Part shown: positions 1 through 12,811 of the stretch, in pieces
How positions within the stretch are numbered: position 1 is the stretch's first letter
How the letters are laid out: the number at the start of each line of letters is the position of its first letter
Source: a virus
Taxonomy: Duplodnaviria > Heunggongvirae > Uroviricota > Caudoviricetes
Virus record (IMG/VR): IMGVR_UViG_2778261572_000006
Coordinates: 1 to 12,811 of that record
Reading direction: 5' to 3' (one strand)
DNA: 12,811 bases
Position numbers and translations under genes: made by a program
The notes under the pieces: model-generated
Database searches by the model: none
What the model was told of the DNA's origin: nothing
Seen by the model: the letters and a program-made list of their open reading frames with translations, nothing else

Positions 1-5
1 GTAAT

Positions 6-188
6 TTAAAAACGGTTCTGTGAAAGTGACACGAACCGATCTCCATCGATGTTACGGGCGACCGCCTCCTGCTGGTCTTCCGGGTAAAGGGAAATCAGTG
101 TCGCCTTGCGTTCGGCAAGAATGGTTTCAAAATCCAGCTCCTCGACCACATCCGGTGCGGGTAGCTGGTTCAGGTCGATAATCGGCAT
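6..188 (-). pseudogene. J: Baseplate assembly protein J (P2 gpJ-like), N-terminal fragment only: about 45 gpJ-like codons, then divergent sequence and an in-frame stop at 6..8
   Basis: Translation MPIIDLNQLPAPDVVEELDFETILAERKATLISLYPEDQQEAVAR matches the N-terminus of P2 gpJ as I remember it. The ORF ends after 60 codons, whereas gpJ-family proteins are about 300 aa. The start is 5 nt downstream of the W stop, as in P2 (V-W-J order). Confidence 0.65.
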
Positions 189-192
189 GGTT

Positions 193-540
193 TCAACTCA
201 CAGGGATGGTTAACGAAAGTGGCTGGCCGGTGTCGTTGTGCTGGCCGGTTAACGTGACCGTCATTCGCCCGTCAAAACTGCGCGCCGTGGTGACAGATGA
301 CAGCGTGACGCGGGGTTCCCATTTCAGCACCGCCATGTAACAGGCGACCTTAATCTGCAACTCAAGCGCCGGGGTCTGCGGCTGGTCAATCATTGACGCC
401 AGCAACGAGCCGTAATCACGACGCATCACCCGTGAGCCGACCGGTGTGCGCAGGATATCGCCGATACTCTGGCTGATATGCTCAAGGTCAGTGACCGTCA
501 GGCCATCACTGCGATTCATTCCGAGATAACGCGCTGTCAT
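193..540 (-). CDS. W: Baseplate wedge protein W (P2 gpW, gp25-like)
   Basis: The 115-aa product (MTARYLGMNRSDGLTVTDLEHISQSIGDILRTPVGSRVMRRDYGSLLASMIDQPQ...) matches remembered P2 gpW in length and sequence. Its start overlaps the V stop (ATGA-type coupling) and synteny is V-W-J. Confidence 0.9.
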   Translation of the reverse strand: MTARYLGMNRSDGLTVTDLEHISQSIGDILRTPVGSRVMRRDYGSLLASMIDQPQTPALELQIKVACYMAVLKWEPRVTLSSVTTARSFDGRMTVTLTGQHNDTGQPLSLTIPVS

Positions 541-1172
541 AGAGGGCTCCCGGTTGTGCCGCCGCTGTCGCCGGGGTGTTTATGGGTATGCAGTACCTTA
601 CCGTTTGATGAGAGTTCACCGCCGGTGTGTTCAATGTTGCCGCGCATCGTCCCGCCCTTCTGCACTTCCAGCGTGCCGGTAATCAGCCTGTTGGTGCAAA
701 CCACCTCCGGTGTGTCCAGGGTGACGCGGGTTGATGCTTTCACCATGACCACCGGCACCGTGGCAGTAACAGAATCAGAAGCCGTCACGCTGGCCGTTTT
801 AATTCCGCTTGCCGTGAGTGCACTGGTTTCGGGTTCATACTCAATCACCGCCCCGTCAGGGAAACGGATATGCAGGGCATCCGCCGACGCAGACGGCGCG
901 GGGTTATCGCCGGAATAAATCCCCGGCAGAACGAACGCCGTGTCGAGTTCACCGCCCACAGCCAGAATCAGCACCTGTTCCCCCACGGAAGGTGCCCACC
1001 ATGTGCGCGAACGTCCGGCGCGATGGGTCAGCCACTGAAGCCAGTCGGTGCACATGCCACCGGTCTGCACACGGCAGCGACCGGCTTTAAGGTTGGTTTC
1101 GACGACAAGGCCGGTACGAATCATGTTGCGCAGTGCGCGCGCGAGTTCCTGAATATTTGCGAGAGTGTTCAT
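537..1172 (-). CDS. V: Baseplate spike/hub protein V (P2 gpV)
   Basis: The ORF 537..1190 contains MNTLANIQELARALRNMIRTGLVVET..., which matches the P2 gpV N-terminus from the 7th codon. I take the ATG at 1172 as the start (211 aa); the upstream ATG at 1190 is a less likely alternative. Confidence 0.85.
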   Translation of the reverse strand: MNTLANIQELARALRNMIRTGLVVETNLKAGRCRVQTGGMCTDWLQWLTHRAGRSRTWWAPSVGEQVLILAVGGELDTAFVLPGIYSGDNPAPSASADALHIRFPDGAVIEYEPETSALTASGIKTASVTASDSVTATVPVVMVKASTRVTLDTPEVVCTNRLITGTLEVQKGGTMRGNIEHTGGELSSNGKVLHTHKHPGDSGGTTGSPL

Positions 1173-1255
1173 GCGTGTGAGATTGCACAATATATAAAAG
1201 TTATGCTATCTGGATTCATTTGTAGAACGACCATACAACATTCGAGGAGAGCGTA
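1173..1255. promoter_or_regulatory. Divergent intergenic region between V (minus) and the AT-rich gene (plus); candidate Ogr-type late promoter for V with a partial TGT-N11-ACA dyad at 1221..1237
   Basis: An 83-bp AT-rich spacer lies between two divergent start codons. TGT at 1221..1223 and ACA at 1235..1237 resemble the P2 late-promoter TGT-N12-ACA element, but the spacing is off by one. A GAGGAG Shine-Dalgarno sits 6 nt before the ATG at 1256. Confidence 0.3.
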
Positions 1256-2041
1256 ATGTTCAGTGATAATGTGACTAATGCGTGGTGGTTTATCTCTTTG
1301 TATCTATTTTTATTAATAGCATTAACATTTATTACCTTTGGTAAAAGTAATCTTATGAGGTTTATTGCACATTATTTCAATTTTGAGTATTCAGACAGAA
1401 AGTTAAAAATGCTCGACAAAAAATGGCGCGACATTCAACTATTTAAAATAATTAACGGAATCAATGTATCAGGCATCGAAGATGTGAGAATGATACAGCA
1501 GGGGCTGATTGATGGAAAACTAAAAACATCGTATTTTTTTCTTACTCGCTTCTGGGGTGACATAACAAAACCACCACACATAATTAAAACAATAATTGTA
1601 ATTCTGTCCAGCATTATTTATATTCTCTTCGCATGTTATATACACAACAAACAATCCGCTATAGTAAGAGATGCCATAGGCATACCATATAAAAAGATGA
1701 TGTACTATGTTTATAGTGACAAAGTTCTTTTATCCTTCAACAATAAAACAGTTGAATTCAATAAAACTTATAGCCTTGCCGATTGCAAGAGGCTACGAAA
1801 CGTATTTATAAAAGACACACTTCCTGAGATCGCCTGCAATAAGCTCTTACAGCTAAACGAGGAGGACTCGGAATGGTTAAGTCAGGAGATTAAAGATAAT
1901 AACAGCCAAAAAAAAGCATTATTAATAATATCCCTCATCTATTTCATTTCAGGTCTGGTTATATTCCTGTCATATACAAAATTCCTTTACGCCAATAAGA
2001 AGGTTGTAGAATACAAAGCATCAAATAAAAATCACTCATAA
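1256..2041 (+). CDS. AT-rich predicted integral membrane protein (three hydrophobic segments), function unknown; moron at the position of P2 orf30 (between S and V)
   Basis: A 261-codon ORF with a GAGGAG RBS 6 nt upstream. Hydrophobic stretches WWFISLYLFLLIALTFITF, IIKTIIVILSSIIYILFACYI and ALLIISLIYFISGLVIFLSY. Codon usage is very AT-rich (many AAA/AAT/ATT/TTA), unlike the flanking P2 genes. It is followed by a hairpin terminator. Confidence 0.6.
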   Translation: MFSDNVTNAWWFISLYLFLLIALTFITFGKSNLMRFIAHYFNFEYSDRKLKMLDKKWRDIQLFKIINGINVSGIEDVRMIQQGLIDGKLKTSYFFLTRFWGDITKPPHIIKTIIVILSSIIYILFACYIHNKQSAIVRDAIGIPYKKMMYYVYSDKVLLSFNNKTVEFNKTYSLADCKRLRNVFIKDTLPEIACNKLLQLNEEDSEWLSQEIKDNNSQKKALLIISLIYFISGLVIFLSYTKFLYANKKVVEYKASNKNHS

Positions 2042-2046
2042 ACCTC

Positions 2047-2086
2047 TAAACATTGAGCGACCAGCATGGCCGCTCAATGTTTAATT
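2047..2086. terminator. Bidirectional intrinsic terminator hairpin between convergent genes
   Basis: Perfect inverted repeat CATTGAGCG (2051..2059) and CGCTCAATG (2071..2079) with an 11-nt loop, extendable to a 13-bp stem (2047..2059 pairing 2071..2083). It is flanked by TTTAATT on the plus strand and an A/T run on the other side, and lies between the stop at 2041 (plus) and the stop at 2113 (minus). Confidence 0.6.
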
Positions 2087-2206
2087 GCGCATCAGCCTCT
2101 GCCTGGATAAAACTAACGCTCAAGGTGAGCCAGGATAATCTCTTCAATCATCTGCACATCCTCACCGGTAAAGCCGAGCAGAGGACGCGCCGGATAATCA
2201 ATTTTC

Positions 2207-2683
2207 TTACCGTCTTTCCGGTTTTCTTCCGACAGACCGAACTGATGCACACTGGCGATTTTCGGTGACTTTCCGCCGTAAAACTCCATTGATGCCTGTT
2301 CCGGGCTGGCGCGGATAACGCGCCCACAGGTCCAGCGTTTTGTAGCGGATATAAAAATCGAAGTTAATCTGGTCGCATTCGTACTTGTTTGACGCCAGCT
2401 TCGAGAAGTCCTTCGGCTGACGCTCGGTGCCACCGGCGGTGTCGGTGGTGCTGGCGATGGAGCCGGTGACACCAATACCAATTTTTTCCCCTTTCATTTC
2501 GCTGACCGGCACAATGTTGATGCGGGTCAGAAAATCAGAGGACTCCTGCATGGTGTTCATCAGGGTCTGGGTGACCGACGGTTCAACGGTGAATTTTTTC
2601 GACACATCACCGGCGTCGATGCCGTTCAGTTCGGCAACACGGGACAGGTAGGCATTAAATTTAAAGCGGGTTTCCTGGCGCAT
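2207..2683 (-). pseudogene. N: Major capsid protein N (P2 gpN), 5' fragment: first ~123 codons intact, then out-of-frame or unrelated sequence and a stop
   Basis: Translation MRQETRFKFNAYLSRVAELNGIDAGDVSKKFTVEPSVTQTLMNTMQESSDFLTRINIVPVSEMKGEKIGIGVTGSIASTTDTAGGTERQPKDFSKLASNKYECDQINFDFYIRYKTLDLWARY matches remembered P2 gpN. gpN is about 357 aa, but only about 570 bp exist between the start (2683) and the terminator (about 2110), so the gene cannot be complete. The expected downstream genes M, L, X, lysis, R and S are absent. Confidence 0.75.
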
Positions 2684-2741
2684 AGTTTTTCCTGAAATTA
2701 AGGGTTAATCGTGAAGGTTTTCCCGGACTGACTGACGCCGG

Positions 2742-3596
2742 TCAGCAGTTCGTCATCAGGGCGTCACCGCCACCGCCGGTGGCCTTGCTGCGGCGCTGCT
2801 GGGTCAGACTTTCGGTGTGGTCGAGGCTGTTTTTCAGGCGGGTGAATGCCTGGCTGGTTTCATCCGCCCTGTCAGTCACATCCTGCTTAAGTGCGGAAAA
2901 GGCGGTTTCCATCTCAGCGAGGCGCTGCTCAGTGGCGCTCAGTTTTTCCTGCACATGTTCAGCAACAGCGGTCACCGCTTCATGCACGTCATTCAGACGG
3001 GCGTCATCGCTGGCCTGTTTGCGGCCAAAAATGGATTTCACCTTTTCGGTCAGGGCGGTGAACACGGTTTCAGGCAGGTCTTCAAATTCCAGCTCAACAG
3101 GCGTTGCCACTGAAATCAGGTTTTCAGGGCTTAATTTGAAGCGGTTCAGGGGGTTGTGTTTTGCCGTGCGGCAGAATTCCAGGTATTCCGTGCCGAGGCT
3201 TGCCGGGTCATCGGTGACGGCCAGCCCCACCAGATAACATTTGCCGGTGTTGGCAAAGTTCGGCTGAATTTCCATTGAGGTGTAGACCTTCTGCGCGGCC
3301 TTGTTCATCGCGATAAGGTCATCGGTCGGGGTGATTTTCGCAAACAGCGCCCATTTGCCTTTCAGCGCCGAATCATCGTCAATCTTTTCGGCCTTCAGTT
3401 CGACCACATCGCCATAACGCTTAAAAATACCGTCAGGCAGGATGCCGCGCAGATGTTCCAGGTTAATGCGGCAACCATAGACTCGCGGGTCAAAGGTTTC
3501 GGCCATTTCCTGAATATCCTGCGCACTGATGACACGCCCGTCACAGGTGTCACCCTCAACGCCGATACGAAAGAATTTTGAGACTTTTTTTGCCAT
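2742..3596 (-). CDS. O: Capsid scaffolding protein O (P2 gpO)
   Basis: Product from MAKKVSKFFRIGVEGDTCDGRVISAQDIQEMAETFDPRVYG... to ...GGGGDALMTNC (284 aa) matches remembered P2 gpO. The ATG at 3596 is preceded by AGGAGTCCTGACA. The ORF-track start at 3662 is an upstream in-frame extension, not the real start. Confidence 0.9.
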   Translation of the reverse strand: MAKKVSKFFRIGVEGDTCDGRVISAQDIQEMAETFDPRVYGCRINLEHLRGILPDGIFKRYGDVVELKAEKIDDDSALKGKWALFAKITPTDDLIAMNKAAQKVYTSMEIQPNFANTGKCYLVGLAVTDDPASLGTEYLEFCRTAKHNPLNRFKLSPENLISVATPVELEFEDLPETVFTALTEKVKSIFGRKQASDDARLNDVHEAVTAVAEHVQEKLSATEQRLAEMETAFSALKQDVTDRADETSQAFTRLKNSLDHTESLTQQRRSKATGGGGDALMTNC

Positions 3597-3769
3597 TGTC
3601 AGGAGTCCTGAATAGTGATTAGAGGAGTCACATGTCGGCATCAGTTTCCCGACGATGCGCATCCTCCGCCATCAGTCCCGGATGGCTTATCACTGACACA
3701 ACAGCACCTTAGCGAATCGCGGGGCGCGACTCAGTAGCCTTGCCGTGTATTCATCACGGCGAGGTATTC
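3597..3769. promoter_or_regulatory. Divergent O/P intergenic region (expected site of P2 late promoters PO and PP); contains the dyad GTCGG-N10-CCGAC at 3634..3653
   Basis: A 173-bp spacer lies between divergent start codons of O (minus) and P (plus). A perfect 5-bp inverted repeat with a 10-nt spacer is seen directly. Assignment as Ogr-dependent late promoters is by synteny with P2 only. Confidence 0.35.
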
Positions 3770-5542
3770 ATGACCATCACCACAGACACCACTCTTTTAC
3801 ACGACCCGCGTCGTCAGGCGGCGCTGCTGTACTGGCAGGGATTTTCCGTGCCGCAGATTGCCACCATGTTGCAGATGAAACGCCCGACGGTGCAGAGCTG
3901 GAAACAGCGCGACGGCTGGGACAGCGTTGCCCCCATCAGCCGTGTCGAAATGAGTCTGGAAGCGCGGCTGACCCAGCTCATCATCAAACCGCAGAAAACC
4001 GGCGGTGACTTCAAGGAAATTGACCTGCTCGGACGCCAGATTGAACGACTGGCACGGGTCAACCGCTACAGCCAGACCGGCAACGAGGCAGACCTTAATC
4101 CGAACGTCGCTAACCGCAACAAAGGCGGGCGGCGCAAACCGAAAAAGAATTTTTTCAGTGACGAGGCCATCGAAAAGCTGGAGCAGATTTTCTTTGAGCA
4201 GTCTTTCGAATATCAGTTGCACTGGTATCGCGCCGGGCTTGAGCACCGCATCCGCGATATCCTGAAATCCCGCCAGATTGGCGCGACGTTTTATTTTTCC
4301 CGCGAGGCGCTGCTGCGCGCCCTGAAAACCGGTCATAACCAGATTTTTCTGTCGGCCAGTAAAACGCAGGCGTATGTGTTCCGCGAATACATCATCGCCT
4401 TTGCCCGGCTGGTTGACGTTGACCTGACCGGTGACCCAATTGTCCTGGGCAATAACGGCGCAAAACTGATTTTTCTCGGCACCAACTCCAACACCGCGCA
4501 GAGCCATAACGGCGACCTGTACGTCGACGAGATTTTCTGGATCCCGAATTTTCAGGTGCTCCGTAAGGTGGCATCAGGTATGGCCTCACAGAGTCACCTG
4601 CGCTCGACCTATTTCTCCACCCCGTCCACGCTGGCGCACGACGCCTACCCGTTCTGGTCCGGTGAACTGTTTAACCGGGGACGCGCCAGCGCCGCCGAAC
4701 GCGTGGAAATCGACGTCAGTCATAACGCCCTTGCCGGTGGGCTTCTCTGTGCGGACGGCCAGTGGCGGCAGATTGTCACCATTGAGGACGCCCTGAAAGG
4801 CGGCTGCACATTGTTCGACATTGAGCAGCTTAAACGCGAAAACAGCGCCGACGATTTTAAAAACCTGTTCATGTGTGAATTTGTTGACGACAAGGCGTCG
4901 GTGTTCCCGTTCGAGGAGCTGCAACGCTGCATGGTCGACACGCTGGAAGAATGGGAAGACTATGCGCCGTTTGCCGCGAATCCGTTCGGCTCCCGCCCGG
5001 TATGGATTGGTTACGACCCGTCACACCGTGGCGACAGCGCCGGATGCGTGGTGCTGGCACCGCCGGTGGTGGCCGGTGGCAAATTCAGAATACTTGAGCG
5101 TCACCAGTGGAAAGGCATGGACTTTGCCACTCAGGCGGAATCCATCCGCAAACTCACCGAAAAATACAACGTCGAATACATCGGTATTGATGCCACCGGC
5201 CTCGGTGTCGGCGTGTTCCAGCTCGTGCGCTCGTTCTATCCCGCCGCGCGCGATATCCGCTACACACCGGAAATGAAAACCGCAATGGTGCTCAAGGCAA
5301 AAGACGTTATCCGCCGTGGCTGTCTGGAATATGACGTCAGCGCCACCGACATCACCAGCTCGTTTATGGCTATCCGCAAGACCATGACCAGCAGCGGACG
5401 CAGCGCCACCTATGAGGCCAGCCGCAGCGAGGAAGCCAGCCACGCCGACCTCGCCTGGGCGACCATGCACGCCCTGTTAAATGAGCCACTCACCGCCGGT
5501 ATCAGCACCCCACTGACATCCACCATTCTGGAGTTTTACTGA
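3770..5542 (+). CDS. P: Terminase large (ATPase) subunit P (P2 gpP)
   Basis: Product MTITTDTTLLHDPRRQAALLYWQGFSVPQIATMLQMKRPT... (590 aa) matches remembered P2 gpP. A GAGG RBS precedes the ATG at 3770, and the stop overlaps the Q start by 1 nt. The ORF-track start at 3740 is an upstream extension. Confidence 0.9.
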   Translation: MTITTDTTLLHDPRRQAALLYWQGFSVPQIATMLQMKRPTVQSWKQRDGWDSVAPISRVEMSLEARLTQLIIKPQKTGGDFKEIDLLGRQIERLARVNRYSQTGNEADLNPNVANRNKGGRRKPKKNFFSDEAIEKLEQIFFEQSFEYQLHWYRAGLEHRIRDILKSRQIGATFYFSREALLRALKTGHNQIFLSASKTQAYVFREYIIAFARLVDVDLTGDPIVLGNNGAKLIFLGTNSNTAQSHNGDLYVDEIFWIPNFQVLRKVASGMASQSHLRSTYFSTPSTLAHDAYPFWSGELFNRGRASAAERVEIDVSHNALAGGLLCADGQWRQIVTIEDALKGGCTLFDIEQLKRENSADDFKNLFMCEFVDDKASVFPFEELQRCMVDTLEEWEDYAPFAANPFGSRPVWIGYDPSHRGDSAGCVVLAPPVVAGGKFRILERHQWKGMDFATQAESIRKLTEKYNVEYIGIDATGLGVGVFQLVRSFYPAARDIRYTPEMKTAMVLKAKDVIRRGCLEYDVSATDITSSFMAIRKTMTSSGRSATYEASRSEEASHADLAWATMHALLNEPLTAGISTPLTSTILEFY

Positions 5543-6576
5543 TGAGCAAGAAAAAAGGGAAAACACCGCAACCTGCGGCAAAAACAATGACCGCCAGCGC
5601 CCCGAAAATGGAGGCATTCACCTTTGGTGAGCCGGTGCCGGTACTCGACCGCCGTGACATTCTGGATTACGTCGAGTGCATCAGTAACGGCAGATGGTAT
5701 GAGCCGCCGGTCAGCTTTACCGGTCTGGCGAAAAGCCTGCGTGCTGCCGTGCATCACAGCTCGCCGATTTACGTCAAACGCAATATTCTGGCCTCGACAT
5801 TTATCCCGCATCCGTGGCTTTCCCAGCAGGATTTCAGCCGCTTTGTGCTGGATTTTCTGGTGTTCGGTAATGCGTTTCTGGAAAAGCGTTACAGCACCAC
5901 CGGTAAGGTCATCAGACTGGAAACCTCACCGGCAAAATATACCCGCCGTGGCGTGGAGGAGGATGTTTACTGGTGGGTGCCGTCCTTCAACGAGCCGACA
6001 GCCTTCGCGCCCGGCTCCGTGTTTCACCTGCTGGAGCCGGATATCAATCAGGAGCTGTACGGCCTGCCGGAATATCTCAGCGCCCTTAACTCTGCCTGGC
6101 TGAATGAGTCGGCCACGCTGTTCCGCCGCAAGTATTACGAAAACGGCGCACATGCCGGATACATCATGTACGTCACCGATGCCGTGCAGGATCGCAACGA
6201 TATCGAAATGCTTCGCGAAAACATGGTGAAATCGAAAGGCCGCAACAACTTTAAAAACCTGTTTCTCTATGCCCCGCAGGGAAAAGCCGACGGCATTAAA
6301 ATTATCCCGCTCAGTGAAGTGGCGACGAAGGACGATTTTTTTAATATCAAAAAAGCCAGTGCCGCAGACCTGCTGGACGCGCACCGCATCCCCTTTCAGT
6401 TGATGGGCGGCAAACCGGAGAACGTCGGGTCGCTGGGCGATATTGAGAAAGTAGCAAAGGTCTTTGTCCGCAATGAGCTTATCCCGTTACAGGACAGGAT
6501 CCGCGAGATAAACGGCTGGCTCGGTCAGGAGGTCATCCGATTTAAAAACTACTCACTGGACACTGACAACGGCTGA
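5542..6576 (+). CDS. Q: Portal protein Q (P2 gpQ)
   Basis: The 344-aa product MSKKKGKTPQPAAKTMTASAPKMEAFTFGEPVPVLDRRDILDYVECISNGRWYEPP... matches remembered P2 gpQ. It is translationally coupled to P and followed by a terminator and the cos site, as in P2. Confidence 0.9.
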   Translation: MSKKKGKTPQPAAKTMTASAPKMEAFTFGEPVPVLDRRDILDYVECISNGRWYEPPVSFTGLAKSLRAAVHHSSPIYVKRNILASTFIPHPWLSQQDFSRFVLDFLVFGNAFLEKRYSTTGKVIRLETSPAKYTRRGVEEDVYWWVPSFNEPTAFAPGSVFHLLEPDINQELYGLPEYLSALNSAWLNESATLFRRKYYENGAHAGYIMYVTDAVQDRNDIEMLRENMVKSKGRNNFKNLFLYAPQGKADGIKIIPLSEVATKDDFFNIKKASAADLLDAHRIPFQLMGGKPENVGSLGDIEKVAKVFVRNELIPLQDRIREINGWLGQEVIRFKNYSLDTDNG

Positions 6577-6580
6577 ACAT

Positions 6581-6604
6581 CGCCGCCTGCGGGCGGCTTT
6601 TTTA
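6581..6604 (+). terminator. Intrinsic terminator downstream of Q
   Basis: GC-rich hairpin GCCGCC-TGCG-GGCGGC (6582..6597) followed immediately by TTTTTT, 5 nt after the Q stop codon. Confidence 0.65.
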
Positions 6605-6746
6605 CACCCCGTCATCACGCCCTCACACGTTCGCCACTGTACAAAACACCCCGCAGACACACCAACGCCCCGGCAGGCCGACTAAACGCCATCACGACGC
6701 GCTCAGACGCTGAAAAAATAAAATCAGCACCACCGCCAGCGCGCAG

Positions 6747-6765
6747 TGCTTTCCCCGCCTCGCCC
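6747..6765. other. P2-type cos site (19-nt cohesive-end sequence, present here as its reverse complement)
   Basis: The plus strand reads GTGCTTTCCCCGCCTCGCC, the exact reverse complement of the P2 cohesive end GGCGAGGCGGGGAAAGCAC as I remember it. It lies about 170 bp downstream of Q, where cos is expected. Confidence 0.7.
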
Positions 6766-6991
6766 GCCCGCTTCATGGGTCGGTTTTGATGCAATTCCAA
6801 AAGCCGTCCTAACTCTCTTAGGCTAAATGTCCAACGAGAAAATAGTTCTTTGAATGTGAATGCATTTTAATGCAGAGTTATGCCCAGCATTTTTGTACAC
6901 TTCGATGTATCAAATGCGCTGCAAACGATCAAATATGGATGTTTTATCAAGCATCCCCCAAAAGATATTTACATCATCCCATGAGGTTAAG

Positions 6992-8065
6992 ATGGATAAC
7001 AAAATCGTAGAAATTGAGACAAATAAGCTTGATTTTGACCCTAAAAACCCACGTTTCTTTCGTCTCAATGATGCCAGTAACGCTGCAACAGTCATTGAGG
7101 AAATGTTAGATGACGAAAGTGTCCACGATCTAATGCTATCAATCGGTCAGCAAGGTTACTTTCCTGGAGAACCTTTATTGGCAGTAAAAAGCAATGGAAA
7201 CTACATCGTGGTTGAGGGAAACAGACGCTTAGCTGCTGTAAAGTTGCTCAATGGAGATCTGCTTCCTCCAAAAAGAAAACTTAAAGGTGTGCAAGAAATC
7301 ATTGATGATACTACCAATAAACCTAAGAAGCTTCCCTGCATCATTTATGAAAACCGAGAGGATGTACTGAGATATATCGGTTATCGTCATATAACTGGGG
7401 TCAAAGAATGGGACTCATTATCTAAAGCCAAATACCTTAAAGAGTTATGTGATACTTTTTATTCACATGAGCCTAAAGAGATAGTATTAAAAAATCTGGC
7501 TCGTGAGATTGGGAGTAAACCACATTATGTTGCAACACTTCTCACTGCACTGAACTTATATGAAGTCGCGCATGACCATGAGTTTTTTAATTTACCCATG
7601 AAGGCTTCTGACGTGGAATTTTCATATATAACCACAGCTTTGGGATATTCAAAAATCACAAACTGGTTAGGTCTACAGGATAAAAAGGATTTTTTAGACC
7701 CAAATTTAAATGAAGAAAACCTTAAGCGTTTATTCTCTTGGTTTTTTGTGCCTGACCAACAAGGTAGAACCATCATCGGTGAGTCTCGAAGAATAAAAGA
7801 TATTGCAGCAGTGGTTGAGAAACCCGAAGCAATTGAAATTCTCATGAAAAGTTCAAACTTGGATGAAGCATATCTATATACCAGCGGAGAAAGAGAAGCA
7901 TTAGATAAAGCACTAAACGCAGCTAGTGTTAAATTAAGAGTAGTTTGGGATATGCTACTTAAAGCTAAAGAATTAACATTAGAGCATGAAGAGGCTGCAT
8001 CTGAAATTTTTGAGATGTCAAAAAATATTAGAAATCAGATCAGAAGCAAAAGGGAGGATGATTGA
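6992..8065 (+). CDS. ParB/Srx N-terminal-domain protein (ParB-like NTPase/nuclease-type domain), 357 aa; candidate defence-module component
   Basis: ATG at 6992 is preceded by GAGGT 6 nt upstream. Motifs KLDFDPKNPRF and YIVVEGNRRLAAVKLL fit the ParB N-terminal-domain pattern (xPNPxQPR ... GERRxRAA-type arginine box). Codon usage is AT-rich. The ORF-track start at 6860 adds 44 non-conserved-looking codons and is treated as leader. Confidence 0.6.
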   Translation: MDNKIVEIETNKLDFDPKNPRFFRLNDASNAATVIEEMLDDESVHDLMLSIGQQGYFPGEPLLAVKSNGNYIVVEGNRRLAAVKLLNGDLLPPKRKLKGVQEIIDDTTNKPKKLPCIIYENREDVLRYIGYRHITGVKEWDSLSKAKYLKELCDTFYSHEPKEIVLKNLAREIGSKPHYVATLLTALNLYEVAHDHEFFNLPMKASDVEFSYITTALGYSKITNWLGLQDKKDFLDPNLNEENLKRLFSWFFVPDQQGRTIIGESRRIKDIAAVVEKPEAIEILMKSSNLDEAYLYTSGEREALDKALNAASVKLRVVWDMLLKAKELTLEHEEAASEIFEMSKNIRNQIRSKREDD

Positions 8066-8069
8066 GATT

Positions 8070-9095
8070 ATGATTACAAATCTTGATTCAATGCCTTCTA
8101 ATGAGCCTTATTTATGGGCTGATTATATTGAGATATTGGCCTTAACTAATATCGACAGGTCATTCAGTCGAGGAGACCTATATAGCACACTGCAAGCTCA
8201 ACCCGAAGCAGTACTAGCTGAAACAGATGAAGCAGAAGAAGAGGGCGTTTATGATGTTGATGATGAAAATGATGCGCCTGTACGCAAGAGAACAAAACGA
8301 AGTGTTAGTCGAGCATATACTGACAGAAAGTGGAGCTATGCGATAGGCTTCATACGACAACGCATTGATTTATTTGGGGATAGTTACCCTTTTACTTTAT
8401 CAGAAGACAACGATACTGTAGAGTTACGTGATATATCAGAAAAGCCACTGGAACATTTAGAAAGACTATATTTAGCTTTACTAATCTGTGCTAACATAAA
8501 ATATGTCAACATAATGAGCAGAAGAGAGATAACGCGCAGTTTTGAACTAATTAGTTTACCTATTTTTGAAAGCCTAATGCCTAGCGGTAGCATAATAAAA
8601 GCATGCTGGGCTTCTGGTGGTCAAGCGGCCCCTTACACTGGAACTCTATATAATAAATTTAAGAGTATTGCTTCCGATATCCGTTGCACAGCGAACTTCA
8701 AAGAACGAGATTTCAGTCGAGGAAATAGTGGTGACGGAGGCCTTGACATAATTGCCTGGCATCCAATGGGAGATCAACGAGATGCCATCCCTATTTCTTT
8801 TGTTCAGTGTGGCTGTTCTCAAGAAGAGTGGGAAGCGAAGCAGCTTGAGGCCTCACCTGCGATGCTCTACAGTAAATTCCCCGTAGCTCACCGATGGGCA
8901 ACTTATTATTTCTTACCTCAAGATCTACGATGGATAGATGGTGAGTGGGCGCATAAAAATAAGTTAGGCGATGCTATTTTTGTTGATCGCCTAAGATTAA
9001 TCAATTTAACCAGAGCATCTGATAATATTGATCACAGTCAAAATATTAGCTATCTAGATATCATCCTTGATCCTTCCAGCGCGATCGCTGCTTAA
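8070..9095 (+). CDS. Hypothetical protein with a C-terminal Mrr-like PD-(D/E)xK nuclease-type motif, 341 aa; candidate defence effector
   Basis: ATG at 8070 lies 12 nt after GGAGG (8053..8057), which is inside the last codons of the upstream gene; an alternative ATG is at 8058. The motif GDGGLDIIAW ... ISFVQCGC ... EEWEAK resembles the Mrr catalytic core GDGG[IV]D ... QxK, from memory. An acidic stretch (ETDEAEEEGVYDVDDENDAP) is followed by a basic patch (VRKRTKRSVSR). AT-rich. Confidence 0.55.
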   Translation: MITNLDSMPSNEPYLWADYIEILALTNIDRSFSRGDLYSTLQAQPEAVLAETDEAEEEGVYDVDDENDAPVRKRTKRSVSRAYTDRKWSYAIGFIRQRIDLFGDSYPFTLSEDNDTVELRDISEKPLEHLERLYLALLICANIKYVNIMSRREITRSFELISLPIFESLMPSGSIIKACWASGGQAAPYTGTLYNKFKSIASDIRCTANFKERDFSRGNSGDGGLDIIAWHPMGDQRDAIPISFVQCGCSQEEWEAKQLEASPAMLYSKFPVAHRWATYYFLPQDLRWIDGEWAHKNKLGDAIFVDRLRLINLTRASDNIDHSQNISYLDIILDPSSAIAA

Positions 9096-10030
9096 TCCCA
9101 TAAATCTGGAAGGTTTCTAGCAACCGCCTCAAACAATGGAGGCGGTACTGCATTACCTACCACAGTATATTTCATATTAATAGAAGCCCGTTCAGTTTCT
9201 GGGAAAATTAAATCCCCAAAACCTTGTAAAATAGCAGCCTCTCGATAGCTAAACCTACGAGCTGGTGCATCCGAAGTAAATTGCCACTTATCAGGTCCCA
9301 ATTTTTCTAATGTTGGACTTATTGGATGTAGAGGCATATGTCTAGGATTTGCAACAATTGTTTTAGATATCTGATCCCAATCTTGCCTACGGTTTCGCGA
9401 TAGATAATACCAATGAAAATCGGCGTCATAAAACTCGCCAACAGGCCAAACAGGCATATGCCCAATAGCATCACGAATTGTGGAATATGGTGTCAAACCA
9501 TCACCATGTGTTGGTTTTGGAAATTTGTATGTAATACCGTAGTCCTTTCGTATTCCTACGATAAAGATTCGCTTCCTATCTTGGGATACCCCATAATGGG
9601 ACGCATTCAGAATTTGCGAGCTTACTGTATAACCTGCTTCTTCGAAAACTTTGAATTGATCCTTTAATAAATGCTCAAAGTTACGCCTTACCATACCAGA
9701 GACATTCTCTACAATGAATGCTTTTGGCTTAATTTTACTCAAAGCACGGGCAAACTCTAAATATAGTGTATTAATCTTTCTATCTGCCTTCCTTGCCCCA
9801 CCTTGACTAAATCCTTGGCAAGGATAGCATCCGATGAGCAACTCAGCAGAAGGGAACGACTGGAGCCCTGAGATATCGCCCAAAATGTAGTCAGTTTCAG
9901 GATGGTTTTCTAAGTAAACGTCCCTTGCGTAAGGCAAAATATCATTTGCCATAAGCACATTGAAACCTGCGTTCAAAACTCCCGCATCAGAACCACCACA
10001 TCCAGAAAAAAGTGAAACTACAGTTGGCAT
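9092..10030 (-). CDS. DNA (cytosine-5)-methyltransferase, 312 aa
   Basis: Canonical C5-MTase motifs in order: SLFSGCGG (motif I, FxGxG), GCYPCQGFS (motif IV, PCQ catalytic Cys), ENV (motif VI), QDRKRIFIVG (motif VIII), then a ~100-aa variable region and RRFSYREAAILQGF ... VGNAVPPPLFEAV (motifs IX/X). An AGGAGG RBS lies 6 nt before the ATG at 10030. Its stop codon overlaps the stop of the convergent gene ending at 9095. Confidence 0.85.
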   Translation of the reverse strand: MPTVVSLFSGCGGSDAGVLNAGFNVLMANDILPYARDVYLENHPETDYILGDISGLQSFPSAELLIGCYPCQGFSQGGARKADRKINTLYLEFARALSKIKPKAFIVENVSGMVRRNFEHLLKDQFKVFEEAGYTVSSQILNASHYGVSQDRKRIFIVGIRKDYGITYKFPKPTHGDGLTPYSTIRDAIGHMPVWPVGEFYDADFHWYYLSRNRRQDWDQISKTIVANPRHMPLHPISPTLEKLGPDKWQFTSDAPARRFSYREAAILQGFGDLIFPETERASINMKYTVVGNAVPPPLFEAVARNLPDLWD

Positions 10031-10272
10031 TGACCCCTCCTAAAAACCGACCGCGTATTATAGCGAAACACCCCGTTGGGAAAAGCTAGATTTTGCCAAG
10101 TCTTGATATTCTCACGTTTTAGTAGTTGTGGCCATCTTTAACGAGAAAAAGATAAAATTGACTTCTCATTAATTTTCAATAGGTTTAATTGTAAGCTCAA
10201 ACTAACGCCTCGCGACACTCGTTATTCAACCCCGCCAGCCCTGAAAACAAGTTTCACGACTGGCGGCGTTCT

Positions 10273-10491
10273 CTATCGTCTGCGTTGTGGTGGCGCAACT
10301 CTGGACTGACCGATATGGTTAAACCGCCCGTAATTATCCCGGACTATTTCGGCACACCCGACCAGCTCATCGGGCGTCAGATTTTCGTTGACCATAATCC
10401 GCTGTAAACGCTGAACAATAGCCATCAGCTTGATATTTTTAGTTTTATGGTGCGGTATCTCGCCTGGTATTCTGTGCATTATCCAAGCCAC
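10273..10491 (-). CDS. Small hypothetical ORF (50-72 codons depending on start), uncertain
   Basis: An ORF in the interval between the DUF3850-like gene and the methyltransferase. There is no convincing RBS for any of the three in-frame ATGs (10491, 10479, 10425), and it overlaps the 3' end of the upstream gene. Kept only as a possibility. Confidence 0.25.
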   Translation of the reverse strand: MAWIMHRIPGEIPHHKTKNIKLMAIVQRLQRIMVNENLTPDELVGCAEIVRDNYGRFNHIGQSRVAPPQRRR

Positions 10492-10921
10492 CCGTTTTGC
10501 TGTGCACGCTCCATCTGTTCATCTGAATAGTTCCATGCTCCATCCGTGGCAACCATTGCCCCGCCAGACATCCCCGTCTCTGGTTCATACATAACAGCAA
10601 GGCCGAGCTGATGCATAATTTCATGATTAATTCTGAATACCAAGCCACGCTCACTAAGTTCTTTCCAGTTCACAATCTCATATGCGCCTGTATTAAGCAG
10701 CTCAATACTTAGCAAGACATAATCTTCCAGCCAGTCTGACAGGTCAGTAACATCTGTTATCCGGGCTTCAACATTTCGCCCCGTATACACACCCTGCACC
10801 CATTCATACAAAATCAACGTGTCCCCGCGCTCATAATTACGGTCATTTTTCCGGAACTCTGCACGTTTCTTTCCTTCCAGCACAAGGTCGAAATATTTTG
10901 CGTGCAGCTTTACCTCGTGAA
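10479..10921 (-). CDS. DUF3850/ASCH-like (PUA-fold) domain protein, about 147 aa
   Basis: ATG at 10921 is preceded by GGAGTGGA. The N-terminal MAKIHEVKLHAKYFDLVLEGKKRAEFRKNDRNYERGDTLILYE fits the ASCH/DUF3850 pattern (GxKxxExR ... GDxLxL). It lies immediately downstream of gene A on the same strand. The ORF-track start at 10967 overlaps the A stop and is less likely. Confidence 0.55.
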
Positions 10922-10930
10922 TTTTTGCCA

Positions 10931-12673
10931 TTATGTCCACTCCATTACTGTTGAGAATCCCGGCCACTCATCAGCGACCGGATACGTGAATTTTTTCCCG
11001 TCATAATTTACGGTCGCGCCACGCGCCAGCGCCTCAAGCTCCCATCGCTGCGGCCTGATACCGTTCTGAGCAAGGTCAACGCGGATACGGGTAATTTGCG
11101 TTCGTTCCGACCGGGTCAGTCTGGCCGATGGCGCTATTTCATGTGGTTTTAACGGGCTTCCGTTTCTCTGCTGACGATTTGGTGTTCTCAGTTCGTGTTT
11201 TAATGCACCTCTGAGCGCCCTCACGACCTCCGGGTCATTCCATTCGATAACACCGTCATCAACCAGATTAAGCACTGCTGCGGCGTGCTCAGAAGGCGTG
11301 GGAGCCGGTAACGAAGTATCACCACCGGTGAGCTTTCCACAGTTATTGACAGGACTCCGAGGCGCGGCGATGCCGCTTTTTAAAGTCAAAGGCTCAACGA
11401 CCGGAACTTTCGGCACAATGCGCCAGTCCGTCGTTCTGGTGATATGAATATGACGCGCGCCGAGATGCGGCGCGTAAATGCCGACCACTCTCTCGACTTC
11501 TTCCTCGTACTCGTTAACGTCATCCGACGGGCTACGGGCGACCCTGACAGTCTGACAATCGCGCGGGACATTTGCCCCGCCCTGCGCGCTGATATACAAC
11601 GCAAAATCACCACTGTCTGCGGCGGCGCGTGCAGCCTCGACGCGTTCGTCAAACTCATCAGCAATGCTGACGCCGCGAGGCAATTTGCGTAGCTCACGGT
11701 AAGCCCCCATTGTCGGCAGGCCAACCGTTTTAAATTGCGGAATGCGCCACGTTGACGCCCATGCGGTAACAGCCGCGGCAGTATCTTTAAGCGGCTTACC
11801 GGTATCGTTATCGAGCTGACCATCCAGTGCATAGCCGTCGATGTTTTTTGAGATGTATTTCGCGATATATCCCGCAGCACCGCCCCGGTTAAGGTGTTTT
11901 GCCTGAAAACGGTTTCGCGCGGCTCCTCTTTCGTCTCCATCCTCTTTGAGCGCGTAGCGACGCATGATTTCAATAATCTGGTTACGCTGGCGTGGATTAC
12001 AAAAAAGCATCATATGCCAGTGCGGCGTTCCGTCGTGGTGTGGCTCGACGACACGCAAACCGTAGACCTGTAAATCATTATCCTTGAATGCCGTGCGCAT
12101 CAGGCTCCAGATACGGCAGAGATAACGCTGCGCATCCTTTGGATTAAATGCCTCATCGTTCCAGCCGTGATTAAGCTGCACGGTTTTACTTTCGCCTTTT
12201 CCGACCTGACGTGTCGGGTGATACTTTGACGGCGCGGTCAGCGTGATAAACATCCCCACATCACCCTCTGCAGCGGCGTAACGCTCAATACCGGCAATGG
12301 TGTTCATCAGCTCCATCCGGCGAATTTCAGGATTAGAAATACTGCCCATCACCTTACTGATAAGGTCGATGCGCTCGCCGGTTTCCCTGTTTTCAAGGTC
12401 ACACGATTTAAGAAATTCCAGATTTGCCTGGCGGCGCGCACGCACATCACGAATGGCATGTTTACTGGCATAAGGAGAACGGTCTTTATTGACCTCCCCG
12501 ACAGCTATCAGTAACGCTTCATGCCAGCGCATACGCTGGCCTTTAAGCTGATGAGTCCACCACTCATCGTTAAACAGGCGGGCAATGGCAGAATATGCCT
12601 GCCTCGTGGTCATCTGCCCTTTACGGTATTTTTTCCAGTAAAGCGGGGAAATATTGAAAGCACATGCAGCGCC
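10931..12673 (-). pseudogene. A: Replication initiation protein A (P2 gpA, rolling-circle HUH endonuclease), 5'-truncated by an IS10 insertion; about 580 C-terminal codons remain
   Basis: The product contains the HUH-type motif PHWHMMLF and the active-site tyrosine region GYIAKYISKN and ends ...FSTVMEWT, as in remembered P2 gpA. Reading upstream of the first ATG (12613), the frame continues as ...AFNISPLYWKKYRKGQ, which is still gpA-like, up to 12673. There it abuts the IS10 terminus, and an in-frame stop follows 4 codons into the IS. Confidence 0.85.
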
Positions 12674-12719
12674 CTGATGAATCCCCTAATGATTTTGGTA
12701 AAAATCATTAAGTTAAGGT

Positions 12720-12788
12720 GGATACACATCTTGTCATATGATCAAATGGTTTCGCGAAAAATCAATAATCAGACAACAAGATGTGCGA
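12720..12788 (-). ncRNA. IS10 RNA-OUT antisense RNA (pOUT transcript), position inferred
   Basis: Placed purely from remembered IS10 coordinates (RNA-OUT spans about element positions 47-115 and is complementary to the transposase start region). Not independently derivable from this sequence. Confidence 0.35.
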
Positions 12789-12811
12789 ACTCGATATTTT
12801 ACACGACTCTC
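12781..12811 (+). CDS. tnp: IS10 transposase, N-terminal 10 codons (partial; runs off the window)
   Basis: ATGTGCGAACTCGATATTTTACACGACTCT translates to MCELDILHDS, the remembered N-terminus of IS10 transposase. Confidence 0.8.
   Translation, partial: MCELDILHDS

Follow-up and report, generated by a model that had tools for sequence, protein, structure and literature searches.

Phages Wphi and P2 and the intact prophages of E. coli N68, SMS-3-5, CLSC36 and W carry their genes in one common order, J-W-V-orf30-S...N-O / P-Q-cos-hotspot-A. Defective relatives have also been sequenced. The P2-like prophages of strains E4 (at yegQ/ogrK) and IAL7250 both show multi-kb deletions in the same late operon, which remove the holin/endolysin/spanin cassette and leave the neighbouring genes truncated. 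In E4 the remnant joins R' to a fragment of P (compared-locus coordinates 14506..15348), and in IAL7250 it joins M to a 5'-truncated S (7890..9101 of the compared locus). These two deletions are compatible with a recurrent counter-selection of lysis genes, a general theme that the literature on "grounded" or defective prophages already describes (PMC6379469).

Here we examined a stretch of 12,811 bp (the window) that shares a multi-kb deletion in the late region, the loss of the lysis cassette and the truncation of neighbouring genes with the E4 and IAL7250 remnants but has endpoints of its own and, unlike them, joins N to S. Compared to the Wphi/P2 relatives, the window lacks 4,717 bp, carries an IS10 in A, and has a broken J joined to a truncated ISEc12. 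Identity over the shared pieces was 96.5-98.0% with Wphi and approximately 99% with the N68 prophage. With P2 (AF063097) it was 92% at the nucleotide level, over 100% of the query, for the interval containing orf30, the terminator and the end of S, which was the sole stretch compared with this phage.

The contig and its gene layout

An exact-sequence look-up with a 158-aa ORF established that the window is the whole of draft contig NLMV01000093.1 (assembly GCA_002229415.1), which is bounded by IS repeats at both ends. From its ~99% identity to E. coli prophages and its IS content we assumed the host to be E. coli or Shigella. The ORF listing, Pfam profiles and alignments all showed a P2-type (Peduovirus) late region that lies reversed in the window (Table 1). 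The divergent Q-P and O-N late operons are present, with portal, terminase, scaffold and capsid genes of the P2 family, and so are the V-W-J block downstream of S and, between S and V, the orf30 slot and the O-operon terminator, placed as in the Wphi/P2 relatives. The essential late set of a functional phage (N, M, L, X, Y, K, R, S ...) is incomplete owing to the 4,717-bp deletion; the prophage is P2-like by descent, but defective.

Table 1. Coordinates of the features of the window (12,811 bp).
Feature	Position	Strand	Description and basis
ISEc12 (IS21 family)	1..55	+	right-end interior, 3' of istB; 100% match to multi-copy ISEc12 ends
J'	53..188	-	nt 1-136 of baseplate gene J (45 codons + 1 nt); colinear with Wphi, N68 and E4 from 53
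gpW gene	193..540	-	baseplate wedge, full length, 115 aa; Pfam GPW_gp25; length as in intact relatives
gpV gene	537..1172	-	baseplate spike, full length, 211 aa; Pfam Phage_base_V + Phage_spike
orf30 homologue	1256..2041	+	AT-rich, 261 aa; P2 AF063097 match; also in intact relatives
O late operon terminator	2046..2084	-	rho-independent, 18-bp stem, shared with convergent orf30; P2 annotation and fold
'S	2113..2317	-	last 205 nt of tail-completion gene S, no own start codon; Phage_tail_S; Wphi 9164..9370
N'-frameshift ORF	2207..2683	-	158 aa, N residues 1-123 + 35 out-of-frame S residues
Deletion junction	2314..2317	-	microhomology TATC; three-way alignment with Wphi and N68
N'	2314..2683	-	first 370 nt of major capsid gene N (357 aa when intact); Phage_cap_P2
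gpO gene	2742..3596	-	scaffold/protease, full length, 284 aa, first in the shortened O operon; Pfam Phage_GPO
gpP gene	3770..5542	+	large terminase, full length, 590 aa; Wphi colinearity; Terminase_6 on called genes
gpQ gene	5542..6576	+	portal, full length, 344 aa; Wphi colinearity; Phage_portal on called genes
cos region	between Q and AT-rich cargo island
AT-rich cargo island	about 6990..10030
DUF3850/ASCH	10479..10931	-
'A	10931..12673	-	replication endonuclease codons 182-761; first 181 codons cut off by IS10
IS10/ISVsa5 outer end	12674..12811	+	begins at exact terminus

N and S are joined out of frame by a single deletion

Our reading of the region is that a Wphi/P2-type (Peduovirus) prophage lost 4,717 bp from within its late O operon in a single microhomology-mediated (illegitimate, homology-independent) step, and from the sequence comparisons we would give this reading a probability of about 0.93. 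At the protein level, residues 8-125 of the 158-aa ORF match positions 1-117 of the 327 of the Phage_cap_P2 profile (E=2.9e-44; Pfam), while an overlapping ORF in another frame (2113..2481, minus strand) matches positions 82-148 of the 148 of Phage_tail_S (E=1.2e-17; Pfam). Colinearity of N with Wphi and with N68 ends at window position 2314, corresponding to nt 370 of the gene (codon 123 + 1 nt), and the S side of the junction encodes S codons 84-150 and the stop with 100% protein identity (tblastn). In nucleotide alignments, positions 4450..1 of Wphi (AY135739) are colinear with window 2314..6764 (98.0% over 4,451 bp) and positions 9370..9164 with window 2111..2317 (97.6%); N and S occupy 4081..5154 and 8916..9368 of that genome.

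A sequence-only reading of the same DNA had proposed that one large internal deletion had cut N after ~123 codons, that the frame of N then decayed, and that genes M through S were absent. The single deletion was confirmed by alignment to two intact references (Wphi and N68), and the position of the cut in N proved exact in the colinearity with Wphi and N68. Pairwise alignment to a complete P2-like phage, which that reading had proposed, sets the endpoints at N nt 370 and at the last 205 nt of S. The frame of N does not decay, however: it switches abruptly at 2317 to an intact 3' end of S, of which 35 codons are read out of frame. Similarly, M, L, X, Y, K, LysA/B/C and R are indeed gone, but S is not, since 45% of it (the last 67 codons) is kept.

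The two genes are joined out of frame at TATC, a short direct repeat found at both parental endpoints and of which one copy has been retained. In phage orientation, ...GGGCGCGTTATC is followed at the junction by CGCGCCAGCCC..., while the N parent runs from ...GGGCGCGTTATC into AGGATTTCC... and the S parent from ...TTTTGCATATC into CGCGCCAGCCC... at the same point. An overlap of at least 4 nt is expected at a random junction with a chance of ~1.6% (~0.016). We found no IS, att site or long in-register repeat near either the N or the S endpoint, and the best word shared within +/-60 nt of the endpoints is 8 nt long and out of register. The TATC overlap, together with this lack of an IS, att site or longer in-register repeat, argues for a one-step microhomology-mediated deletion. 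An abrupt break in colinearity, a 4-nt direct repeat and the absence of mobile-element sequence are also the features of bacterial microhomology-mediated (illegitimate) deletions, from which nothing distinguishes this junction. Slippage during replication and end-joining at the two TATC sites would each account for the deletion, and the scar looks the same for both.

The deletion also created a small perfect palindrome centred on the junction (GGCGCG-TTATC-CGCGCC, window 2308..2324). One of its arms comes from N and the other from S, and the two lie 4.7 kb apart in the parent. The palindrome is probably coincidental.

Extent of the deletion and intact relatives

The missing 4,717 bp lie between N nt 370 and S nt 249 and the size is the same against Wphi and against N68; the intact Wphi-like relatives and phage Wphi itself carry exactly this much more DNA at the junction point. 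Both flanks are colinear with one intact parent, in which the missing segment is contiguous. The prophage of E. coli N68, at 4906620-4939890 of NZ_CM165878.1, is the closest intact relative: window 2314..12673 aligns to it gap-free, and window 53..2317 with a single 1-nt gap that corresponds to a frameshift in the orf30 of N68 itself. More broadly, an un-deleted counterpart of window 53..12673 was found in 54 complete E. coli genomes, at about 98-99% identity, and most counterparts among the matches listed span 17,337-17,338 bp, vs 12,621 bp in the window.

The segment lost comprises N codons 124-357, the whole of M, L, X, Y, K, lysA, lysB, lysC and R, and S codons 1-83. Among these, M encodes the small terminase, L the head-completion protein, Y the holin, K the endolysin, and R and S tail-completion proteins. 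No trace of the deleted 4.7 kb, or of the M, L, X, Y, K, LysA/B/C and R proteins, was found elsewhere in the window with blastn and tblastn.

The junction could in principle have arisen in silico, with N and S intact in the genome and the intervening 4.7 kb collapsed by the assembler, given that short reads underlie this draft contig and that repeats form its ends. We consider this very unlikely, because the two sides share only 4 nt, far less than any assembler k-mer, and the endpoints have no repeat nearby. In addition, the Logan assembly of run SRR3989759 (SRR3989759_191) is identical to NLMV01000093.1 over their overlap, junction included, although two samples are listed for the contig and a single read set may underlie both assemblies.

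The junction is private to one strain and the inactivation looks recent

The N/S junction is private to the source strain. Its exact 30-nt sequence had no match in species-representative genomes, JGI metagenome contigs or IMG/VR, a 200-nt probe gave no spanning match in 5,426 complete E. coli genomes, and a 721-nt probe gave none in 50,697 phage records. The exact 158-aa fusion protein was found solely in NLMV01000093.1 and its Logan re-assembly.

The genes retained around the deletion are in good condition. W, V, orf30, O, P, Q, the cargo genes and DUF3850 are full length and have no internal stops. We identified 21 private sites, at which the window differs from all of the 5-7 relatives compared per site; 20 of them are coding, with 17 synonymous and three non-synonymous changes. 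This pattern is what purifying selection in a functional phage lineage would leave, and carries no sign of drift after inactivation. The private substitutions, the full-length ORFs and the strain-private junction together argue for a recent inactivation, and the locus as a whole points to a recently and multiply inactivated prophage, with the N-S deletion, the IS10 in A and the J-ISEc12 junction as its lesions.

The sequence-only reading had instead regarded the element as a domesticated remnant, a description that the strain-private junction, the full-length ORFs and the 17:3 ratio of private changes speak against. In its long-standing form, this scenario would have O-P-Q, V-W and the cargo selected by the host, and an old, fixed and adaptive N-S deletion that purged the lysis and capsid genes. 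It draws on the intact state of the cargo (orf30, the ParB_N/PD-Lambda-5_A-like gene and the C5 methyltransferase), and on the independent E4 and IAL7250 remnants, where the lysis cassette was also lost, by different deletions, suggesting a recurrent counter-selection of lysis genes. Domestication would show as a defective state conserved in related strains, or as purifying selection after inactivation. We found the defective state in one strain only: the junction is absent from all 5,426 complete E. coli genomes and from the species-representative genomes and the metagenome and viral contigs searched, and hence is not a conserved, inherited state. Moreover, fully intact prophages match the backbone at ~99% identity, and neither an excess of non-synonymous change nor further frameshifts were seen in the retained ORFs. 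We therefore find long-standing domestication improbable, and prefer a recent deletion.

Both ends of the contig are IS junctions

The first 55 nt of the window are identical to the sequence located just 3' of istB in ISEc12. Two full ISEc12 copies in unrelated contexts remain identical for 30 bp further and then diverge (compared-locus coordinates 2501..2585), so that the element in the window stops 30 bp short of the true right terminus. This truncated ISEc12 meets J at nt 136 of the gene, and 3 nt, TAC (53..55), belong to both. The joint is thus a second non-canonical (illegitimate) junction rather than a simple insertion, and implies that the DNA beyond J codon 45 has been lost or rearranged.

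At the other end, colinearity with A stops at 12673, where the exact outer terminus of IS10/ISVsa5 begins. This IS10 has inserted canonically behind codon 181 of A, and the remainder of the gene may lie just beyond it. An insertion in this gene fits with a survey of P2/P4 elements in which the P2 primase/replication gene was a pseudogene more often than any other core gene (PMC13586616). The E. coli hits that reach 12 nt into the A flank raised the possibility of a shared IS10 insertion, which we rejected: the ETEC1747 copy lies elsewhere, between kch and yciI, at a 9-bp target of similar sequence. That reference copy is 1,329 bp long, and its 9-bp target duplication, TGCAGCGCG, resembles the 9-bp target in the window, TGCAGCGCC. 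The near-equality of TGCAGCGCC and TGCAGCGCG at unrelated IS10 copies suggests that IS10 has a preferred target sequence.

The J fragment and the interrupted A had been taken as further marks of a remnant. Both genes are indeed broken, but they are so at IS junctions that form the ends of a complete draft contig. Draft contigs typically break at IS-type repeats and, since this one is bounded by them, its edge features represent assembly breaks as well as biology.

The presence of two IS elements in the same prophage, one of them involved in the J-side junction, also raises the question of whether IS10 or ISEc12 produced the N-S deletion, as an adjacent deletion. There is no IS terminus at or near 2314..2317, and on both sides the sequence is purely phage up to TATC, making this origin extremely unlikely compared to a deletion between the TATC repeats.

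Functional consequences

The O operon resulting from the microhomology deletion would consist of the Ogr-dependent promoter, O, the 158-aa N' ORF and the native terminator, and would yield no functional capsid protein. From the functions of the P2 genes, this copy is predicted to lack the means to assemble capsids (N), to cleave cos (M) and to finish heads (L) and tails (X, R, S). It should likewise be incapable of lysis, with Y, K and LysA/B/C gone, of replication, with A interrupted, and of building a baseplate, with J broken. These losses concern this copy, and another P2-like prophage in the same genome may supply the functions: a probe made of window 1..3700 has a median of two matching places per matching E. 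coli genome. A second near-identical copy of N or S in the genome would seem less likely, as the contig runs unbroken through the junction. P2-type prophages are naturally non-inducible (they do not respond to SOS), and hence mitomycin-C induction would not be diagnostic of the defect.

P2-like remnants that act as tailocins have been described in E. coli (PMC9205054), and the capsid gene is destroyed here too. We asked accordingly whether the locus could be a P2-derived R-type tailocin, or another repurposed particle locus, with its head genes purged and its tail and lysis genes kept. An R-type tailocin has a complete set of tail, baseplate and fibre genes and a lysis module, and the gene content of the window refutes this: the deletion took the lysis cassette and R as well as the 5' part of S, and J breaks off after codon 45. 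The probability of such a locus is negligible.

The truncated N' ORF might also act as a dominant-negative poison of capsid assembly, that is, as an assembly-interference defence. N' would be expressed from the Ogr/delta-activated O promoter, and the intact O, P and Q from the two divergent late promoters, those of O and P. Once late transcription has been switched on by a related P2-like phage or by a P4 satellite, N' would poison assembly; the active part would be the N-arm/E-loop region of the capsid protein followed by the 35-residue out-of-frame tail. The strain-private distribution argues against a selected interference function, and we regard this as a long shot. As for the late promoters, their integrity would follow only from the gap-free alignment to Wphi and N68: the Ogr-type dyad TGT-N12-ACA has no exact match at them, and its one hit in the window is at chance level.

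Following the reading as a recent microhomology deletion, the appropriate annotation is that of a defective Wphi/P2-type prophage carrying an N'-'S fusion pseudogene, and the locus should not be counted among intact or inducible prophages. It is an ordinary case of strain-private prophage decay and no new kind of element, with little import beyond correct annotation. It nonetheless offers a clean and datable single-step inactivation, with endpoints known to the base, a 4-nt overlap and no subsequent drift. With E4 and IAL7250 it adds one more data point to a picture in which P2 remnants shed their lysis cassette early while the cargo (orf30 and the A-Q hotspot) stays intact.

orf30 and the O-operon terminator are native features

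The AT-rich membrane gene that adjoins V had been interpreted as a sign of the deletion. It is a homologue of P2 orf30, a gene that is non-essential in P2 and natively occupies the S-V interval there as well as in the intact relatives. The "putative rho-independent terminator for O operon" of the P2 record maps to window positions of about 2047..2083. It coincides with the hairpin given in Table 1, and an 83-nt stretch folds there at -33.4 kcal/mol (z=-4.5). A consensus terminator scan missed this terminator, owing to its weak T-tract, and it was found through the P2 annotation and folding. The AT-rich gene and the hairpin are thus native P2 features, and neither is a product of the deletion.

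The orf30 homologue is a predicted membrane protein that belongs to no PADLOC family and for which no Pfam model exceeded its curated cut-off. Its alleles fall in two classes, with 0-2 mismatches per kb to N68 (whose copy is the frameshifted one), 98206 and E4, and 37-70 to CLSC36, SMS-3-5 and EC261.

Cargo genes of the A-Q hotspot

The A-Q defence hotspot (window 6992..10030) holds three cargo genes: one for a ParB_N-domain protein that matches the PADLOC models PD-Lambda-5_A and PDC-M38A, one for a 345-aa protein without a family match, and a convergent one for a C5 cytosine methyltransferase (DruM/MTase_II-like). Five relatives differ from this block by only 0-2 nt per kb, vs 13-36 nt per kb in the flanking core genes, and the cargo hence looks much more recently spread than the backbone. 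In strain 98206, ISKpn26 interrupts the gene for the 345-aa protein within this island (compared-locus coordinates 13151..14131).
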